64,000 nucleotides of DNA from an uncultured Clostridia bacterium. Its GTDB lineage: Bacteria; Bacillota; Clostridia; TANB77; CAG-508. The DNA is taken from positions 11,367 to 75,366 of the forward strand of contig CANRPX010000003.1 in NCBI GenBank assembly GCA_947632605.1, written 5' to 3'. The notes under the pieces are model-generated. The model saw only the letters and a list, made by a program, of their open reading frames with translations. It did not search any database and was not told the origin of the DNA. Both the position numbers and the translations under genes were made by a program. Positions 5,661 through 61,836 of this stretch are shown here, piece after piece. The stretch's first letter is position 1; the number at the start of each line of letters is the position of its first letter.

Positions 5661-6920
5661 TTACAATTGTTTTTTGTTATCATATTTTAATTCGTATTCT
5701 GAATATTTTGTTGGATCTATACCTACTTTATTTTTCATGTAAATAAGTGTAATTATCATCATTATTAAGCTAAATGTACCAAATACAACCATTGCATTTG
5801 GTATTGGTATTATTTTTAATAGCCTTGCTGCAAAAAGTCCAAATATTACACTTGTTATAGAATTTGCAAAACTATTTACTGCAAAAATTTTTGTATCAAT
5901 TTTACTATTTGTAAAATTACTTAAATATTTTATTAATAGAACATTATATAATCCTACAACTATATATTTGATTATGTACATTATAAAAATAGTGCTTAAT
6001 GTCATAATTAAATTAAATCCTAATAGGGTTACTCCACCAGAAATAATTATTGATAATGATAGCAATATTCCTATAATTGATAAAGTTCTATTTTTAAATT
6101 TCTTTTGAAATAAATATTGTTTTCTAGAAGAAATTGCAGAAACTATATTTAATATTGCAAAAGATATTCCTATGTATTTTGATGCTATTTCTAAGTTTTC
6201 TAATAAGCTAATTTCATAAGTTCCAAGAACAGAAAGTACACCATAAAAAACAGCAGAAAAAATTAATAAGCACCTACATCTTTTAGATTTAAATGAAAAT
6301 ATTATTGCTTCTTTTATAGAAACTTCTTCTTCCTTTTTTTCTTCTTTTGGTGGTTCAACTTCTTCAAATCTTGTTGACATTACAACTGTAATAAGAACTA
6401 TTACAAGTGATAATGAAATTGGAATATATCCATTTATTTCATATAAAAAGCCAGAAAGTATAAGTGAAATCGCACTTAAAATATAATATCCTGAAACAGC
6501 ATTTCCTTGTATTCTTGCAAATATATTGCTTTTTTCAACATTAGAAGAAATTATGGATTCATGCAGAATTGCTGGTTCTGCAATATCTTTAAGGGCAAAT
6601 GCTAAAGCACAAATAAGTTCAGCAGAAATCAAATGTACTAAATTATCACTGTTCATAACAATAATTAAATAAATAGCATTACATATATTTCCAATTACCA
6701 TTCCTCTTTTTCTTCCTATTTTTTCAATAATCATTGTAGCAGGAACTTGAAATAATATTACAAATAATGCATAAAAAGTATCTACCAGAACAACAGCTGA
6801 CATATCTATTTTCTTTATTTGAGTTAAAAATAGTACATTTATTGTATAAAAAAATAGAAAATCTCTTGATAATGGTCTATATTTTGGATAAAGTTTTAGA
6901 TTTTTATCTTCTTTTTTCAT
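5661..6920 (-). CDS. MFS-type transporter
   Basis: 419 aa with roughly 12 hydrophobic segments and a charged central loop. Confidence 0.7.
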   Translation of the reverse strand: MKKEDKNLKLYPKYRPLSRDFLFFYTINVLFLTQIKKIDMSAVVLVDTFYALFVILFQVPATMIIEKIGRKRGMVIGNICNAIYLIIVMNSDNLVHLISAELICALAFALKDIAEPAILHESIISSNVEKSNIFARIQGNAVSGYYILSAISLILSGFLYEINGYIPISLSLVIVLITVVMSTRFEEVEPPKEEKKEEEVSIKEAIIFSFKSKRCRCLLIFSAVFYGVLSVLGTYEISLLENLEIASKYIGISFAILNIVSAISSRKQYLFQKKFKNRTLSIIGILLSLSIIISGGVTLLGFNLIMTLSTIFIMYIIKYIVVGLYNVLLIKYLSNFTNSKIDTKIFAVNSFANSITSVIFGLFAARLLKIIPIPNAMVVFGTFSLIMMIITLIYMKNKVGIDPTKYSEYELKYDNKKQL

Positions 6921-40432: not shown

Positions 40433-40961
40433 TATTGCTCCTTATATATGTATCAAATGGTTTTCTTAATATTCTTTCTAAGAATAAAATAACAATAATA
40501 TGTACTGGTATCATTGCAATTTGTTTTATAAATCTAGTTAAAAATAATACTTTAAAAGCTTTTCCAGTTGTAATACTTGTCCATAAAGTATTTAATAACA
40601 TATTAGATATTACTGCCACTAAAACAGTTGATACTATTAATCTCAATACAAATTGTTTTTCAGTATATGAATCTGCTTCTTTCTTATAAAGAAATACTCC
40701 ATAAATAGCACCAGCAATTGCAGTACTTATTGTATACCCAACAAAGTATGGACCTGTTGGGAAAAGTATTGCACCAATTAAATCTCCTAAAACATTTAGT
40801 AAAATTGTCCATTTTGGTCCAAGCCAAATTGCACAAATCATAGTTGGAACAAAACCAAAACTTATTTTCATAATTGGTGTTTTTACAGATAAAAATCTAG
40901 ATAGTACAATTAACATTGCTAAAAAAATTGCTGTTAAAATAATTTTTTTACTTTTACTCAT
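40425..40961 (-). CDS. ECF transporter S (substrate-capture) component, substrate unknown
   Basis: About 180-aa 5-6 TM protein starting MSKSKKIILTAIFLAM, overlapping the ecfA start; S-A-T gene order. Confidence 0.55.
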   Translation of the reverse strand: MSKSKKIILTAIFLAMLIVLSRFLSVKTPIMKISFGFVPTMICAIWLGPKWTILLNVLGDLIGAILFPTGPYFVGYTISTAIAGAIYGVFLYKKEADSYTEKQFVLRLIVSTVLVAVISNMLLNTLWTSITTGKAFKVLFLTRFIKQIAMIPVHIIVILFLERILRKPFDTYIRSNND

Positions 40962-41014
40962 TAAATGCTCCTTTTGTTCTTTACATTTTAATATTATATC
41001 TAACAAAAAATATA

Positions 41015-41542
41015 CTATTGTTGTGATTTTCTATAAGTTTCAATAGTTCTTTTTCCATCAACAACTATTGGTAGAGTTAATTCATCAGAGCTTACTATTG
41101 TTAACTCTTCTTTTCTTCCATTTGGGAAAAAATTAGTTTCTCCACCTTCTACATAATAAGATTTATCATATCTTATTTCTATTTTATCATCCTCAATGGT
41201 ATATGTTCCTTCAATATAGTAAGAAGTAGCATCAAATGTTACTGCACCATCAGAAAAATAATATGACATTGTTTCTAAGTTATTTTCATCATCTATTATA
41301 TAAAGACCTTCTATTTCATTTGAGTCTTCATTATCATCGTTTGAAATTTCATTTGTGTTTTCTAAATCACTATCATTTTCATTAATTGTTTCATTTTTAT
41401 CATAATTAACATTATTAACTAAATTTTCAGATATTTGGTTTGTAGTATTTTTATTTGTATCTTTAGATACTAATTTGTTTACAGACCAAAACACTACAAC
41501 AATTACTATAATAATTAAAATTATTAAAGGCACTTTTTTCAT
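41015..41542 (-). CDS. hypothetical N-anchored secreted protein (N/D/E-rich linker)
   Basis: Start MKKVPLIILIII with an AAGAGG RBS. Confidence 0.45.
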   Translation of the reverse strand: MKKVPLIILIIIVIVVVFWSVNKLVSKDTNKNTTNQISENLVNNVNYDKNETINENDSDLENTNEISNDDNEDSNEIEGLYIIDDENNLETMSYYFSDGAVTFDATSYYIEGTYTIEDDKIEIRYDKSYYVEGGETNFFPNGRKEELTIVSSDELTLPIVVDGKRTIETYRKSQQ

Positions 41543-41625
41543 ATAATACAACCTCTTTTCTAAATTCATTGATATTTTATCATACTTTTTATAATATGTG
41601 TACAAAAACTAATAAATTTTGCCTA

Positions 41626-41667
41626 TAAAAACGAAAAAGCGATTGTCTAATAATCTATTTGACAATC
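41626..41667 (-). terminator. rho-independent terminator of the GC-rich small gene
   Basis: Minus-strand hairpin GATTGTC-N13-GACAATC followed by GCUUUUUCGUUUUUA. Confidence 0.5.
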
Positions 41668-41701
41668 ACTTCTTGCGTGGGAATCTCGCAGTCGGCTTTG
41701 A

Positions 41702-41914
41702 TTAGCCTTGGTAATAGCGCTCAAATCGATGAGAGTTCCAGTCGATTTCACCCCATTCTTGCTCGCCAGCATCGGTCTTTAACAGTAGCCTATGGAGTTC
41801 TAGTCCATTCGGACAGTACCGACACATACCGGGATCGAAAGGAATCGACGCCTTTTCGAAATCAGCCATGCACTTCTTACATTCCTGGTTACACATTTCA
41901 ACGGTCTTGGGCAT
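41702..41914 (-). CDS. GC-rich 70-aa Cys-rich protein (CxxxCxxC-x15-CxxC), probable horizontally acquired
   Basis: Clean ORF with an AAGGAGAG RBS 7 nt upstream of ATG. Codon usage differs from the host (CGG, CCC, ACC, GGC). Local GC is about 50% against about 25% in flanks. Confidence 0.5.
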   Translation of the reverse strand: MPKTVEMCNQECKKCMADFEKASIPFDPGMCRYCPNGLELHRLLLKTDAGEQEWGEIDWNSHRFERYYQG

Positions 41915-41954
41915 AATTGATCTCTCCTTCGCCTAAATTTTTTGAGCTACTTTA

Positions 41955-41983
41955 ATAATACAACTTTTTCTGACTTATGTCAA
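41955..41983 (-). promoter_or_regulatory. consensus sigma-70 promoter driving the GC-rich small gene
   Basis: Minus strand carries TTGACA (41983..41978), a 17-nt spacer and TATTAT (41960..41955). Confidence 0.55.
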
Positions 41984-41993
41984 CTAGGCTACT

Positions 41994-42653
41994 TTATTTC
42001 TTTTTTAATACATATACTAACCATTTATTATTATTCTCTCCACCTTCTTTATGAAAGCTATAAATTTTAAATTCTTTCTTATTGATAAGTTCATTTATTT
42101 CATTTTCAGAAAAATACTGATAAAATCGTTCAGCTCCCATCTGATATTCATTTGGAAAATCTACCCATTCATTATCTACTTTTTTTATTTCGCGATTCAT
42201 CATATTAAAAACAAATATTCCATCATTTTCAAGAGCATCATGCACTTTCTCAAAAACCTTTACAATATCATCTTTTGTAAAATGAACAAATACTCTCCAA
42301 GCAAAAATCGCTGAATATTTTTCTGTAATTTCATCTTCCAAAATATTAAATTTAATTGGATTTAAACCTTTATTTTTAATTTCATTAAGAAAATCATTTG
42401 CTATATCACTTGCTGTAATATTATATCCTAATTCTTTAATGTAAGCAGCATTTACTCCATCTGCTGATCCTATCTCTAAAACTTTTGAATTTTTTGGTAA
42501 TAATTCCATATTTATTTTAATAAAATCATTTAATTTTTTGCGTTTGCGTTTTGCTTTTTCTAAATCAAGATTATCGTGTTCAATAGTAGTCTTTAAATAC
42601 ACACTTGCTTTTTTCTCATATACTTTAACAGTTAAATCATTTTCCTTGCTCAT
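41994..42653 (-). CDS. class I SAM-dependent methyltransferase
   Basis: SAM-binding motif VLEIGSADGVNAAY, 219 aa. Confidence 0.7.
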   Translation of the reverse strand: MSKENDLTVKVYEKKASVYLKTTIEHDNLDLEKAKRKRKKLNDFIKINMELLPKNSKVLEIGSADGVNAAYIKELGYNITASDIANDFLNEIKNKGLNPIKFNILEDEITEKYSAIFAWRVFVHFTKDDIVKVFEKVHDALENDGIFVFNMMNREIKKVDNEWVDFPNEYQMGAERFYQYFSENEINELINKKEFKIYSFHKEGGENNNKWLVYVLKKK

Positions 42654-42773
42654 TTTTTTACCTCTTTTAAAAAATTTTTAAATAACATATTTATTTTAAA
42701 ACATTTTCTTGTATTTGTATATAAAACATAGTAAATTTTCTTAAATTCTCCATTTTACTTCAAATTATTTAAT

Positions 42774-42801
42774 ATAAAAAAAGAATAGCAAAGCTATTCT
42801 T
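42774..42801 (-). terminator. rho-independent terminator
   Basis: Hairpin AAGAATAGC-loop-GCTATTCTT with T-runs on both strands, downstream of 42880..43302. Confidence 0.5.
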
Positions 42802-42879
42802 TTTTGTGCCAACAACAGCATAAGTATTTACAACTCACGTAGTTATTTTAAAAACTACTAATAAAAATATTAATTAATT

Positions 42880-43302
42880 TTATTTATAAATTCTTTTTAA
42901 ATTTATACCATAACAATCAAAATAATCTATATATTCCTGTATATTTTCATTTCCATTTATATATTCATGCTCATGACCTTCTAATCTATATGTTGGAATA
43001 AATATCATAAGCAATAAATAAATAGTAATTATAGCAATAATTGATTTTACACTAAATTTTATTTTTTTATTAAATAAAATTATTAATAAAAAAGCATTAA
43101 TAATTATACTTATCAAAAAATAAATTGTAATTTCTCCATATTTACTTCCTCCAGGAAAAATAAATCTAAAAAAGCAACTAATAACTATATTAATTATTAC
43201 TACATATAAGCAAATCTTGTTTTGTTTTACTTCCATATTTTTTGTACTAAATATAATTATTCCTATTACTAAAATAATTATTGGTATTAAAAAAAATATC
43301 AT
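42880..43302 (-). CDS. hypothetical small membrane protein
   Basis: 140 aa with 4 hydrophobic helices. Confidence 0.4.
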   Translation of the reverse strand: MIFFLIPIIILVIGIIIFSTKNMEVKQNKICLYVVIINIVISCFFRFIFPGGSKYGEITIYFLISIIINAFLLIILFNKKIKFSVKSIIAIITIYLLLMIFIPTYRLEGHEHEYINGNENIQEYIDYFDCYGINLKRIYK

Positions 43303-43434
43303 CTTATTATCAACTTCTTTCTAAAAAAACATTATCGGTTTATAAATATAACTACAATTAAAATAAAAATCAACCATTTCTGATTGATTCTTTTTAAATC
43401 TATCTAACATATAATTTTAAGCAAATATATATTT

Positions 43435-43517
43435 GGTGCTGATGGTGGGACTCGAACCCACATGGTTTCCCGCAGCATTTTGAGTGCTGTGCGTATACCA
43501 ATTTCGCCACATCAGCA
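43435..43517 (-). tRNA. tRNA-Leu (anticodon CAA)
   Basis: The reverse complement folds as a class II tRNA: acceptor GCUGAUG/CAUCAGC, anticodon loop CUCAAAA, long variable arm, T-loop GGUUCGAGUCC and an encoded CCA. Confidence 0.9.
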
Positions 43518-43587
43518 TATATGCGTTTTTAAAAACGCATAATTATATTAACACATATTTTCTTTTGTGTCTACATTTTCTATTTAT

Positions 43588-53023: not shown

Positions 53024-54817
53024 TTAAAAAGAAAATTTCTTTGTGCCTTTTATAAAATTCAATAAATCAATTGTATCAAAAATATCAAATGTTTTTTCAT
53101 TTAAGATACAAGCTGCTGTTTGAAATTCATTTGTTAATACTTTTGTTCCTTTTATTGAATTTAACATATCAATAGCATCAAAAATTGAAACTGTTCCATC
53201 GCCATCAACATCACCTTTTTTTACTACCTTATATGTTTTACCACTTGTTGTAATTGTATACCCTGTTCCTAAAGCACCAGATGTTACAACTTCTCCATTT
53301 GATTTTTTAATAACTGCATCAGTAAATTTTGTTTTTATATTTTCTGCACTTATATCTGGTAAAATATTAATATTTGTATCAGTAACTTTAATATCTTTTT
53401 CTAAATCCACTGATGGAGTAGTTGGTGTTGGTTCTTCAACACTTGGCTCACTTGGAGTTGTTGGTGTAGATTGTGGTGGATTAGTAGCTTGTCCTGGAGA
53501 AGATGTTCCAGAGTTACTTCCAGTTGAACCTTTTGAAACAATATGTTGATTTCCATCAGTTGCTCTTGCGGCATATCCATAAGTACCATCTTGGTTAGAT
53601 ACAATTAAATCCCAATAATATCCATCTACTGGACTAGTTGCTCTTTGGAATATTTTTATTGATTCATTATTATTTAATGCACCAATTTTTGTTCCACTTA
53701 AACTTCCAGCTGCTCTAACTGTTAATGAACTAGAAATATTTTGTACTGTGCCTTCTTCATAAGTAACTTTATTTGCAATAGATACATTTGGTCTTTCATA
53801 GCTTTTTGCTGACATATTTTTAAATAAAGGAATTATAAAAGTATGAGCACCATTAAGGTTCGTATAATAACTCTTAAGGCTTGTACCTTGTGTTTGAGCT
53901 GCCATTATATTTTGTTGATATTGGTGTGATCCTATTGAAGATCTGCCAGATACATTAAATTTTTGATAATAAAATGTATTTTGACTATAATCATTCATAT
54001 AACTATTTCTTACTATTTCTGTTCCTCCAAAAATAGAAGCTCTTCTTGATGTCCATCCATGTTCTTGTGCATATTTTAATCCATTTGTGATTATTTTATC
54101 TTTTCCATTTCCAGTAGCACCAAAATTGAAATAATTATATACACCAACATAACTACCATTATATCCATTTCCATTACTTAAAGTAGAACCTTGAGATCCA
54201 TGTTCATTTATTATTTTAGCTACTAAAAAATATGCATTTATTCTATATTGATTAGCAGCATCTACAATTGCATGTATTACTTCTTGATTATTTATAAAAG
54301 AACCATATTTAGATACTACTCTTGCTATATCATCATAAGAAGCATCAGCACTTTCTAAATCTTTAAATTGAAATACATCTGTATCATTTATAGAATTTCT
54401 TGGATCCATCATATATGATAATGCTTGTAAAGAAGCACAGCACCAAGATCCATTATCATATTTTGTTGCCCCACATATTGGGCAAATCCATAATCCATCA
54501 TAATTACTTGCTTTTTGAACTAAATTTCTAGGACTTCTTCCATGCCCTTGAAATTCTGCTACTAATGCCTCATTAAAATCAAATCCAGTATAATATACTA
54601 AGAAAGTATAATTTGGATGTCTTCTTTGCATATCTTGTATTAAAGCTTTATATCCTGGATATATACCATCATCTATTGCGTTTATATCACGAGATAATGT
54701 TCCTTTTGGCATATCAGCAGCATAAGATTTATTATTTGTTATAGGAGAAAAAACAAGTAGCAAATATTGTAATAATGCTAATATTATTACAATCGCTAAT
54801 ATTCTTTTTCGTAACAC
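53024..54817 (-). CDS. secreted putative peptidoglycan hydrolase (glucosaminidase-like) with SH3b domain and C-terminal dockerin-like repeats
   Basis: Signal peptide, an N-terminal catalytic-like region (about 330 aa), a P/T/S linker, an SH3b-like segment and a C-terminal DVDGDGTVSIFDAIDML dockerin-type Ca-binding repeat with a second degenerate repeat. Confidence 0.5.
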   Translation of the reverse strand: MLRKRILAIVIILALLQYLLLVFSPITNNKSYAADMPKGTLSRDINAIDDGIYPGYKALIQDMQRRHPNYTFLVYYTGFDFNEALVAEFQGHGRSPRNLVQKASNYDGLWICPICGATKYDNGSWCCASLQALSYMMDPRNSINDTDVFQFKDLESADASYDDIARVVSKYGSFINNQEVIHAIVDAANQYRINAYFLVAKIINEHGSQGSTLSNGNGYNGSYVGVYNYFNFGATGNGKDKIITNGLKYAQEHGWTSRRASIFGGTEIVRNSYMNDYSQNTFYYQKFNVSGRSSIGSHQYQQNIMAAQTQGTSLKSYYTNLNGAHTFIIPLFKNMSAKSYERPNVSIANKVTYEEGTVQNISSSLTVRAAGSLSGTKIGALNNNESIKIFQRATSPVDGYYWDLIVSNQDGTYGYAARATDGNQHIVSKGSTGSNSGTSSPGQATNPPQSTPTTPSEPSVEEPTPTTPSVDLEKDIKVTDTNINILPDISAENIKTKFTDAVIKKSNGEVVTSGALGTGYTITTSGKTYKVVKKGDVDGDGTVSIFDAIDMLNSIKGTKVLTNEFQTAACILNEKTFDIFDTIDLLNFIKGTKKFSF

Positions 54818-56184: not shown

Positions 56185-56378
56185 TAGCTCTACAAAAAGT
56201 AGAGCTTATGAATAACCATTATTATATAATCATCATTCAAAACACTACTTATTGTGCTTTGACGGTATTAGCACCTAATTTAATAGGTTGCTGTGGAGTC
56301 ATTAAGCCGCTCTCTCGTCCACTCTTGATAACTTTTATTTACTTTTTCTATTTTACAACACAAAATGCATATTGTCAA
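56185..56378 (-). promoter_or_regulatory. metK leader: S-box (SAM-I)-like riboswitch with terminator, plus TTGACA-N17-TAAAAT promoter
   Basis: Minus-strand RNA contains UUAUCAAGAG, ...CAGCAACC, GGUGCUAAUACC and a P4-like hairpin. A terminator AGCUCUAC-UUUUUG-GUAGAGCU plus U7 (+ 56187..56208) sits just before the RBS. Promoter -35 is at 56378..56373 and -10 at 56355..56350. Aptamer conservation is only partial. Confidence 0.55.
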
Positions 56379-60053: not shown

Positions 60054-60229
60054 ATAAACTTCTCCTTTCTAGAATTTTAAAGCTTTTTTATATATAAATG
60101 TATACAATTTGATTAGAGTATATCATATAATTTATTTTTTTGCTACTAATATTTTTTAAATGCAAAGAGAGAGATATTCTTTCGAATTCTCCCTCTTGCC
60201 CACACAGGAAGTCCTGTATGAAAAGACTA

Positions 60230-61645
60230 TTACCTGATCATACGTGCCAAGTAAACTCCAGAGGCCGAAGCCATCATGAGTCCACGAGTCAGGCCGCAAC
60301 CATCACCAATGGCATACAGTCCACTCACGCTGGTTTCCAGCGAAGTGCTGAGTTCGACTTTGTTAGAGTAGAACTTCAGCTCAGGACCATAGAGCAGATT
60401 GTCCGGATCTGCGAATCCAGGTGCAACCTTTTCCATCATTTCGATAAACCCAAGGATGTCCATGAGTTCACGATAAGGCATTGCCAGGCTGAGATCGCCA
60501 GCAGAAGCCGCCTTGAGTGTGGGAACAACCGAGTTCTTTGCCAGTTCTTCAGGCCATGTCCTCTTACCGATTCGGATATCTCCCAACCTCTGAACAATCA
60601 CGTTACCACCAGCCAAGGCATTCATGTTCCTTGCGATGTTCCGCGAATACTCCATCGGATTCGGCATATCCTTCAGGTTAAGAGAGACCAAAAGAGCCAA
60701 ATTCGTGTTGGTACTTTTGGTGTCTTTTAAGGCATGTCCGTTTACGAGCGTAATCCCTCCGTCATAAACCTCAGTGGTAACGAAACCGGATGGATTCTGG
60801 CAGAACGTTCTCACTTTGTCATTGTACGGTGCAGGTTTTGCTATGAATTTACCTTCGTAAAGGAGTTCGTTAATCTGAGCCATGACAGAGTCTTTCAGCT
60901 CATAACGAATACCTACGTCGATAACGCCAGATGCGGTCAAGATATCGTGCTCATTGCACAAATTCAAGAGCCAGTTTGCACCCACGCGTCCAATAGCCAA
61001 AACAACAGCGCCGGCCTCAACCGTCTTGGTTTCACCACCATTAGAGTGATAGATTACACCATAAACGGTATTGTCCTTGATGAGAAGATCCTGAACTTCG
61101 GTTTCGAACAGGAACTCCACTCCGTGTGCTTCGAGATACTTCTCAATCTTCTGGTACAAAACGTGTGCTTTGTCAGTACCAAGATGACGAATCGGAATGT
61201 TGATGAGATCCAGTCCAGCCGTCTCGGCAGTCTTTCGAATCAGGGAAATCTCTCCCGGATGATCGATGCCTTCAAGCTTTTCTGTTGCCCCAAACTCCAG
61301 ATACACCTTATCGGTGTAGTCGATCAGGCGCTTAGTGTTGTCAACGCCAGCGTACTTGTGCAGGTTGCCCCCAACGTAGAAGTCATCGTCCTCTTCGTTG
61401 TAGAGAGACAACTTACCATCGGAAAAGGCACCCGCCCCGGAAAAGCCGTTCATGATCTGGCAAAATGGCTTGCACTTAACACATTTTCCAGTAACAGCTG
61501 CCGGGCAGTTACGGTTTTCTACTCTCTTACCCCGTTCAATGAGCAGGATGCTCTTATCGGGATGGAATCGAACCATTTCAAGCGCAAAGAACGCACCTGC
61601 AGGTCCTCCTCCTACTACCACATAGTCAAATCTCTTCTCTTTCAC
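60230..61645 (-). CDS. FAD-dependent protein, COG2509 family, GC-rich (about 52%) xenolog of the native 34456..36024 gene
   Basis: VVGGGPAG and FSDGKL motifs with a GTG start (MKEKRFDY). Codon usage is GC3-rich, unlike the host. The + strand track ORFs 60140..60730 and 60734..61714 are antisense artifacts of high GC. Confidence 0.8.
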   Translation of the reverse strand: MKEKRFDYVVVGGGPAGAFFALEMVRFHPDKSILLIERGKRVENRNCPAAVTGKCVKCKPFCQIMNGFSGAGAFSDGKLSLYNEEDDDFYVGGNLHKYAGVDNTKRLIDYTDKVYLEFGATEKLEGIDHPGEISLIRKTAETAGLDLINIPIRHLGTDKAHVLYQKIEKYLEAHGVEFLFETEVQDLLIKDNTVYGVIYHSNGGETKTVEAGAVVLAIGRVGANWLLNLCNEHDILTASGVIDVGIRYELKDSVMAQINELLYEGKFIAKPAPYNDKVRTFCQNPSGFVTTEVYDGGITLVNGHALKDTKSTNTNLALLVSLNLKDMPNPMEYSRNIARNMNALAGGNVIVQRLGDIRIGKRTWPEELAKNSVVPTLKAASAGDLSLAMPYRELMDILGFIEMMEKVAPGFADPDNLLYGPELKFYSNKVELSTSLETSVSGLYAIGDGCGLTRGLMMASASGVYLARMIR

Positions 61646-61790
61646 TTTGGAAATGCTCCTTTCAATTGTCTTGCTGAGAAATTGGTTGACAGTTGCACTA
61701 AATCAAGACAATAGCCTCCTTCCTAAAGCACAAGTCTTGTGCTTTTTGTATCAGTGCAAAGTCAAAGACTTTACATAATTTTAGTATACA

Positions 61791-61836
61791 TCAAAAAGAA
61801 AAAAGTGTCAATTTCTAGTAAAAAAATTGACACTTC
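61791..61836 (-). terminator. rho-independent terminator of 61852..62646
   Basis: Perfect 11-bp inverted repeat AGTGTCAATTT...AAATTGACACT with a U-run on the minus strand. Confidence 0.6.

Follow-up and report, generated by a model that had tools for sequence, protein, structure and literature searches.

Does a short GC-rich block in AT-rich DNA mark a protein gene, an RNA gene or a recent arrival from another genome, and, if it encodes a protein, what might that protein do? We addressed this question for positions 41626–41983 of a 64,000-nucleotide (nt) stretch from an uncultured Clostridia bacterium (GenBank assembly GCA_947632605.1, contig CANRPX010000003.1, positions 11,367 to 75,366 of the forward strand), hereafter the window. 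The window as a whole has 25.6% GC; in 100-nt segments, GC content is 0.43–0.51 across 41650–41950 and 0.17–0.25 in the flanks on both sides, with about 48% for the block overall, which bears out the initial annotation of a GC-rich cassette in AT-rich DNA. The same annotation named a methyltransferase and a secreted protein as the flanking gene products; the first, of 219 amino acids (aa), can now be assigned to Pfam Methyltransf_23/12 and TehB, and the second call comes down to an N-terminal hydrophobic anchor or signal in a protein of 175–196 aa. Our overall explanation, which we hold to be reasonably probable, is that the cassette carries a real protein gene of an unannotated four-cysteine (Cys4) family, whose product probably binds zinc, may act through a partner protein and has a tentative link to the uvr genes.

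The main evidence comes from homologs of the 70-aa product. A word-indexed homology search matched the protein to itself only, but the resulting view of it as a singleton orphan was rejected when an exhaustive HMMER search over 1.84 billion cluster representatives (cut-off E < 1e-3) recovered a family. This search gave 37 matches, two of them low-complexity repeat proteins, and the remaining ~35 are stand-alone small proteins of 45–91 aa with 32–55% identity, mostly aligned over nearly their full length. The initial annotation had named homology to part of a larger gene, a pseudogene remnant, as grounds for refuting it; this was not borne out, as all true homologs are full-length small proteins, never fused to other domains, and their sole name in any source is "hypothetical protein". 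In 53 aligned sequences, C12, C15, C31, C34 and G37 are invariant and H41, W54, D58, W59 and Y68 are at least 90% conserved, giving the family consensus N-x2-C-x2-C...F...C-x2-C-x2-G-x3-H...W-x3-DWNSS...Y-x-G. The CxxC-x15-CxxC cysteine pairs already pointed out in the initial annotation are thus the core of a conserved family and do not vary within it; exactly four cysteines are present in 26 of 49 members.

The ratio of nonsynonymous to synonymous substitution rates (dN/dS) is 0.10–0.24 (Nei-Gojobori, non-saturated pairs only). Within the species, the polymorphisms found inside the open reading frame (ORF) among seven assemblies (41843, 41816, 41813) each occupy the third position of a codon when read in the minus-strand frame; the strains were looked up by identical protein, so this pattern is only modest evidence, and the 90%-identity cluster holds a single protein sequence. 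From the amino-acid conservation, the dN/dS values and the lack of conserved RNA structure described below, 41702–41914 therefore reads as a protein-coding gene under purifying selection. One metagenome-assembled genome (L025; members and loci carry L numbers) has two tandem family copies (6390–6523 and 6746–6882), one of them full-length at 66 aa and the second 59 aa long and without the conserved C-terminal Y-x-G tail.

Judged by its sequence, the cassette is a real, independently transcribed, monocistronic gene with its own promoter, ribosome-binding site (RBS) and terminator, and every element of the complete expression unit proposed initially (a TTGACA-N17-TATTAT promoter, an RBS, a 70-codon ORF and a terminator) was recovered (Table 1). 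The cassette occurs with an identical protein and constant gene order on 17 contigs from independent metagenome assemblies, which excludes an assembly artefact. Its promoter starts 11 nt past the stop codon of the upstream methyltransferase gene; promoter sites with at most one mismatch number 11 in the 64-kb window against 2.8 expected. The shape TTGACATAA...GT(A/T)GTAnAAT also precedes the T-box leader of thrS (49300–49328), and a like shape lies upstream of L020, L022, L023, L025, L026, L029, L030, L031, L033, L035, L037 and L039. We considered a conserved dedicated operator in the promoter and rejected it: as the TTGACATAA...GTAGTAAAAT shape also drives the thrS T-box leader, it is better taken as a generic strong sigma-A promoter of the clade.

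At the other end of the unit, the terminator hairpin with its U-run has a minimum free energy of −21.2 kcal/mol (z = −3.96; equally stable shuffles, 0/200) and is also present in the fold of the whole transcript. A simple terminator scan overlooked it because its stem is AT-rich and its apical part long, and a hairpin followed by a T-run lies downstream of every family member examined. The 85-codon antisense ORF was judged spurious because GC-rich DNA has few stop codons; the three strain polymorphisms hit second codon positions of this ORF and would alter its amino acids. Compared with all six other same-species assemblies, the window has one substitution and a 1-nt deletion in the 5' leader (41945/41944). 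Several members of the long type, the subfamily to which the window gene belongs, have a short hairpin directly after the −10 box, followed by a conserved TATAG (L020, L023, L026, L029, L037, L039; for example GTGTAATGTAAATTACAC and GGGGTAATATCCCC). This hairpin could act as a 5' stabiliser of the mRNA; the window's own leader is without an obvious equivalent.

The initial annotation had raised the alternative of a structured small RNA with a fortuitous ORF. In AT-rich genomes, a GC-rich island often turns out to be an RNA gene, and the RNase P RNA and tRNAs of the window share this signature; moreover, the 3' untranslated region (UTR) is GC-rich, and the coding sequences (CDSs) of the family fold slightly better than synonymous shuffles (mean folding z −1.08 ± 0.24, against −0.41 ± 0.16 for neighbouring genes). 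We nevertheless consider it highly improbable that the block is primarily a structured or dual-function RNA whose ORF is fortuitous or secondary. Rfam 15 gave no match in 41626–41983, either at E ≤ 1 over 40500–43600 or at gathering thresholds over the whole window, and the same scans do detect the window's RNase P RNA, T-box, S-adenosylmethionine (SAM) riboswitch and tRNAs; together with ARAGORN, they led us to reject known RNA genes (signal recognition particle RNA, 6S, tmRNA and others). Folding gave z = −1.23 for the whole transcript and z = 0.06 for the window CDS, and RNAalifold on a codon alignment of nine long-type members found no consensus structure (energy 0.00, z = +0.62 against codon-column shuffles), so that no conserved structure is seen in the window's subfamily. 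Conservation lies instead at the level of amino acids, in the invariant Cys and Gly and in Trp, with low dN/dS and saturated silent sites.

Table 1. Predicted elements of the cassette, followed by RNA genes and RNA leaders elsewhere in the window (positions count from the first letter of the window)
Feature	Positions	Strand	Remarks
Sigma-A type promoter	41955–41983	−	TTGACA 41983–41978, 17-nt spacer, TATTAT 41960–41955; 11/12 matches, best site of the region
5' untranslated leader	41915–41954	−	RBS AAGGAGAG at 41929–41922, 7 nt ahead of ATG at 41914; read from sequence
CDS, 70-aa protein MPKTVEMCNQECKKCMADFEKASIPFDPGMCRYCPNGLELHRLLLKTDAGEQEWGEIDWNSHRFERYYQG	41702–41914	−	70 codons; stop TAA 41704–41702
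GC-rich 3' untranslated spacer	41679–41701	−	Between stop codon and terminator hairpin
Intrinsic terminator	41626–41678	−	Long hairpin, core stem GUGAUUGUC / GACAAUCGC (41669–41661, 41647–41639), then UUUUUCGUUUUU
Antisense ORF, 85 codons	41659–41916	+	Judged spurious
RNase P RNA class A	33470–33825	−	Rfam
T-box leader upstream of thrS	49085–49286	−	Rfam; promoter 49300–49328
SAM riboswitch	56227–56334	−	Rfam; promoter 56350–56378
tRNA-Leu(CAA)	43434–43516	−	Reads G-ending codon
tRNA-Thr(CGT)	50665–50740	+	Reads G-ending codon

To follow the gene across genomes, we wrote by hand a degenerate DNA pattern for the conserved residues; it requires the DWN motif and hence misses some members. The pattern found 18 real loci in 185,579 species-representative genomes; a further match in Neomarinimicrobiota (L016) was a false positive without an ORF. 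The pattern-positive hosts are all uncultured gut Clostridia, comprising Candidatus Scatovivens, "uncultured Clostridium sp." and rabbit and sheep bins, and every host region examined has 25–31% GC; as far as seen, the family is confined to gut Clostridia of this composition, that is, Ca. Scatovivens and relatives. The same pattern had no matches in 2.9 million viral contigs (IMG/VR), tblastn found no homologs in 50,697 phage genomes and only noise (E ≥ 6) in plasmids, and no fold-level homolog was found in BFVD.

The presence of the gene in related genomes, a check suggested in the initial annotation, was readily established. In L031, the ortholog lies immediately upstream of the same secreted-protein gene as in the window, and the other neighbours are 79–97% identical; in L023 and L037, the family gene lies within the same neighbourhood of deoB and a gene for a 779-aa protein, and L039 shares with the window a nearby Pribosyltran/PNP pair. 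The 779-aa protein itself (44775–47114, minus strand), which is without a Pfam domain, adjoins deoB and has a 777-aa counterpart in L037, is a large lineage-specific protein with no assigned function. In L038, an insertion sequence element (57–1129; an rve-family transposase plus an ORF with a helix-turn-helix) lies immediately upstream of the family gene, replacing the deoB-side neighbours seen in L037.

These orthologs bear directly on the origin of the cassette. The initial annotation had read its foreign codon usage, with CGG for arginine, as a sign of recent horizontal acquisition. The usage is indeed atypical: GC content at third codon positions (GC3) is 0.52 in the window gene, against 0.12 ± 0.11 in in-frame chunks of the window's long ORFs, and the gene also uses CCC, GCG and TCG. 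This excess is shared by the family. At the 18 species-representative loci, the family genes show a mean GC3 excess of +0.27 over their neighbours, larger than 0.1 in 17 of 19 gene copies, with an excess of just +0.07 at first and second codon positions; seven further loci show the same GC3 excess. In a pool of 23 family genes, codon choice leans towards codons ending in C or G for all amino acids; among arginine codons, the share of CGG is 29% in the family and 1% in neighbours. We rejected CGG as one conserved nucleotide motif, since these codons are spread over at least 13 alignment columns. The first 40 nt past the stop codon of the window gene have 50% GC, and across the family the 3' UTR has 38% GC against 22% for neighbouring genes (p = 7e-12), a difference that is partly due to terminator stems. 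Synonymous sites are saturated even between syntenic orthologs (window versus L031: 58% amino-acid identity, proportion of synonymous differences (pS) 0.89), and these saturated sites are still GC-rich, which implies complete turnover without decay toward the AT bias of the host.

A foreign single-gene cassette, recently acquired from a donor of intermediate GC content and not yet drifted to host composition, would account for the GC3 of 0.52, the rare codons and the GC-rich 3' UTR, and the window does contain a second GC-rich gene (60230–61645). We nonetheless regard such an acquisition as very unlikely. Syntenic orthologs in related species with pS of ~0.9 place the gene before the species splits; the GC3 excess recurs in 17 of the 19 copies and at all further loci examined, in hosts of 25–31% GC and with no host of intermediate GC seen; and the promoter is of the native type of the clade. 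Around the cassette, we found no flanking repeats or target-site duplication, only short AT-rich chance repeats, and in the window no integrase, transposase or other mobility gene adjoins it; nor did the phage, plasmid and viral-contig searches return homologs. Syntenic orthologs, saturated silent sites and the shared GC3 excess therefore lead us to reject a simple recent transfer, and the synteny with L031, L023 and L037 speaks for vertical descent of the gene at the window's locus. High GC at silent sites and in the 3' UTR is actively kept up across the family and is not the trace of a recent transfer; some force must maintain it.

As to that force, the extension of the GC excess into the 3' UTR favours a cause at the level of the transcript or the DNA over a purely codon-level one. 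RNA structure as the cause of the high GC3 is not supported in the window's subfamily, and the folding signal of individual family sequences is weak. The excess could stem from mRNAs that better withstand AU-directed RNases or from translation that depends on rare tRNAs; recurrent replacement by copies from donors not seen here is a further possibility.

The second gene belongs to a larger GC-rich island at about 60200–61750 (45–50% GC), which contains a 471-aa ORF (60230–61645, minus strand) with a GC3 of 0.54, a near-consensus promoter at 61783–61811 and spurious long antisense ORFs on the plus strand. The 471-aa product has an N-terminal GxGxxG motif and looks like an oxidoreductase dependent on flavin adenine dinucleotide. 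The gene could truly have arrived by horizontal transfer, or it could be a further case in which high GC is maintained. Smaller GC bumps occur at 51000–51300 (0.38) and 53400–53700 (0.37).

What the protein might be is best approached through its predicted structure. No Pfam, NCBIfam or PDB sequence match was found for the 70-aa protein, apart from one noise-level NCBIfam match to a sugar amidotransferase (E = 0.096); there was no consistent Pfam match among 34 family members, and the family profile had no match in the PDB (best E = 0.12). The window protein has a pI of 5.26 and a net charge of −3, and the family has a mean pI of 6.1, with 38 of 49 members acidic, and a grand average of hydropathy (GRAVY) of −0.96; neither a signal peptide nor a hydrophobic segment was found in the family protein. 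AlphaFold2, run on the family alignment, gave an all-helical model (helices 2–21, 28–32, 35–47, 49–55 and 62–67) with a mean predicted local distance difference test score (pLDDT) of 80.6, exceeding 90 at residues 11–40, in which C12 and C15 lie on helix 1 and C31 and C34 at the junction of helices 2 and 3. With this model, the best description is a new, unannotated family of small, helical Cys4 proteins, probably zinc-binding and with an apparently unmatched fold, within the broad known class of small Cys4 metal-binding proteins.

The two CxxC pairs probably clamp one structural metal ion, most likely Zn2+. In the mechanism that we envisage, the strong housekeeping-type sigma-A promoter, the canonical RBS and the gene's own terminator would drive production of the soluble, acidic 70-residue protein, a metal held by C12/C15 and C31/C34 would lock a small helical bundle, and the bundle would display a conserved surface formed by G37, H41, W54, D58-W59-N-S-S and the C-terminal Y-x-G. 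Because the protein is small, acidic and never fused, and its extreme C-terminus is conserved, its function may lie in binding a partner protein rather than in DNA binding or catalysis, a proposition on which we find the balance about even.

Comparison with known systems narrows the class assignment. The initial annotation had compared the cysteine spacing with a radical-SAM-like CxxxCxxC triad, but C8, the first cysteine of that triad, is variable (below 90% in alignments A1 and A2; F in the syntenic ortholog L031; L in L030 and P0005), the window protein has no Radical_SAM profile match in Pfam or NCBIfam (E ≤ 10), and at 70 aa it is far too small for a domain of ~200 aa or more. It had also suggested a zinc ribbon of the DksA/TraR type (PF01258). 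These are likewise small cytoplasmic proteins with two CxxC pairs ~15–17 residues apart, and TraR, at ~73 aa, is similar in size; DksA and TraR also bind a partner protein rather than catalyse, a mode that the family protein would share. The x15 spacing is near that of DksA/TraR (~17), a motif common to many unrelated zinc proteins. PF01258, however, has no match in the window protein (E ≤ 10) or among 34 members (E ≤ 0.1). Unlike the DksA/TraR ribbon, the family model is all-helical, with no beta ribbon and with the first CxxC (12–15) inside the single N-terminal helix 2–21; the 11 residues before the first Cys are too few for a coiled coil with an acidic tip, no helical hairpin precedes that CxxC, and the family has its own W-x3-DWNSS...YxG C-terminal half. 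We therefore discarded both class assignments.

A further comparison is with zinc-binding anti-sigma (ZAS) domains such as RsrA and with Gin/CsfB and Fin, small zinc-binding regulators of RNA polymerase and sigma factors in Firmicutes. All are small, helical or compact, Cys-rich metal-binding proteins that work through contacts with other proteins, and ZAS domains offer a precedent for a CxxC placed on a helix. The ZAS motif, however, is H-x3-C-x2-C, whereas the order in the family is C-x2-C-x2-G-x3-H; we found no Pfam match to zf-HC2, Gin or Fin in 34 members and no conserved sigma-factor neighbour. WhiB-like (Wbl) proteins are stand-alone ~80-aa helical proteins with four invariant cysteines and a downstream conserved Trp-containing motif. 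They differ from the family in their spacing (C-xn-C-x2-C-x5-C), in binding a 4Fe-4S cluster and in being known only from Actinobacteria and their phages, whereas the hosts of the family are Clostridia, and PF02467 (WhiB) had no match in 34 members. Finally, PHROG 3910, a phage "transcriptional regulator", has weak matches in 15 of 34 members (best E = 6.5e-5) along the CxxC...CxxC stretch, but these cover at most positions 14–73 of a 356-position profile, and the window protein itself is not among the matching members; a phage origin was rejected on these grounds, the likeness being at motif level and without support from phage, plasmid, IMG/VR or BFVD searches.

The main rival on function is a redox or metal protein, in which the Cys4 site would bind iron (rubredoxin-like) or an Fe-S cluster, or would form a thiol/zinc redox switch like RsrA or Hsp33, serving oxidative-stress sensing or electron transfer in strictly anaerobic hosts. 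The four invariant cysteines and the conserved histidine fit such a role, as do the anaerobic gut Clostridia in which the gene resides and the placement of the CxxC pairs on helices in the model, as in zinc-binding anti-sigma domains; a desulfoferrodoxin gene lies ~5 kb from the cassette inside the window, and HtpG adjoins the family gene in L039. We judge this rival unlikely, given that no rubredoxin, zf-HC2 or WhiB profile match was found among 34 members, that no redox gene recurs as a neighbour and that the only adjacent sigma factor, in L039, is probably coincidental. A small Cys-rich ORF with its own promoter in Clostridia could also suggest a Cys-rich precursor of a ribosomally synthesised and post-translationally modified peptide (RiPP), of the SCIFF, ranthipeptide or sactipeptide type, or a small toxin. 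This is barely credible here: no conserved radical-SAM maturase, protease or exporter neighbour was seen in the window and ~30 contexts, NCBIfam returned nothing beyond the noise-level match given above, the protein has neither signal peptide nor hydrophobic segment, and the predicted product is a folded helical domain with residues conserved throughout its length, not a leader plus core.

Returning to a partner-binding Cys4 protein, we looked to gene neighbourhoods for the pathway that it might serve. In seven members from both subfamilies (L012, L015, L019, L027, L030, L035, L041), uvrB and/or uvrA is adjacent or at most two genes away; L035 is the window protein's closest relative (55% identical), L019 has the family gene between uvrB and uvrA, and in L041 the gene is just upstream of uvrA with uvrB two genes off. 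This is the sole recurrent neighbourhood that crosses the subfamilies and is probably the ancestral site of the family gene. As the position beside or between uvrB and uvrA is the most widespread and probably the ancestral one, UvrAB nucleotide excision repair, or the DNA-damage response, is the most likely partner pathway that we can propose, although we give this link a low probability. When we searched the literature, we found no paper on a small zinc protein encoded at uvrB/uvrA in Clostridia.

Several points weigh against this explanation. The location beside uvr genes could be no more than ancestral synteny that has been kept: at uvr loci the family gene always keeps its own promoter and terminator, no LexA or Cheo box lies upstream of any member, and the window gene itself is not near uvr genes. 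SOS control of the family gene, for which such a box would be expected, was accordingly rejected. At the protein level, the C-terminal 25 residues are modelled with moderate confidence (pLDDT 61–76), no known fold matches the structural model, and in these anaerobic hosts the Cys4 site could hold iron or an Fe-S cluster in place of zinc. Transcription, translation and metal binding are all deduced from sequence and model.

One further reading, which we hold to be quite unlikely, concerns the GC-rich wording of the gene. Rare-codon gating, a concept described in PMC5100601 and PMC5066624, is a precedent for translation that depends on rare tRNAs. Examples are the bldA/TTA system of Streptomyces and non-optimal codons that favour translation under starvation. 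As in the bldA/TTA system, the family gene is written in the rarest codons of its genome, here with CGG at 29% against 1% and C- or G-ending codons favoured throughout; unlike in that system, the bias spans all codon families and the 3' UTR and not one codon read by one dispensable tRNA. The GC-rich wording of the gene (the rarest host codons, especially CGG, plus the GC-rich 3' UTR, in hosts with GC3 of ~0.1–0.15) might be a selected regulatory device, in which translation or mRNA lifetime would depend on rare tRNAs or on how well the mRNA withstands AU-directed RNases, such that the Cys4 protein would be made selectively under starvation or stress and act on UvrAB. If true, this would be the mirror image, in an AT-rich genome, of the bldA/TTA system, tied to a new zinc-protein fold.

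Taken at their own strength, these results add a small-protein family without Pfam, NCBIfam, PHROG or PDB assignment to the repertoire of poorly studied uncultured gut Clostridia. The family offers a natural counter-case to the rule that atypical composition equals recent horizontal transfer, for its silent sites are saturated yet 3–4 times more GC-rich than the genome, with ~30-fold enrichment of CGG, and these sites may provide a handle on silent-site selection in extremely AT-rich bacteria. The position of the gene at uvrB/uvrA, in turn, is a testable lead to what may be an accessory nucleotide excision repair factor in Firmicutes.

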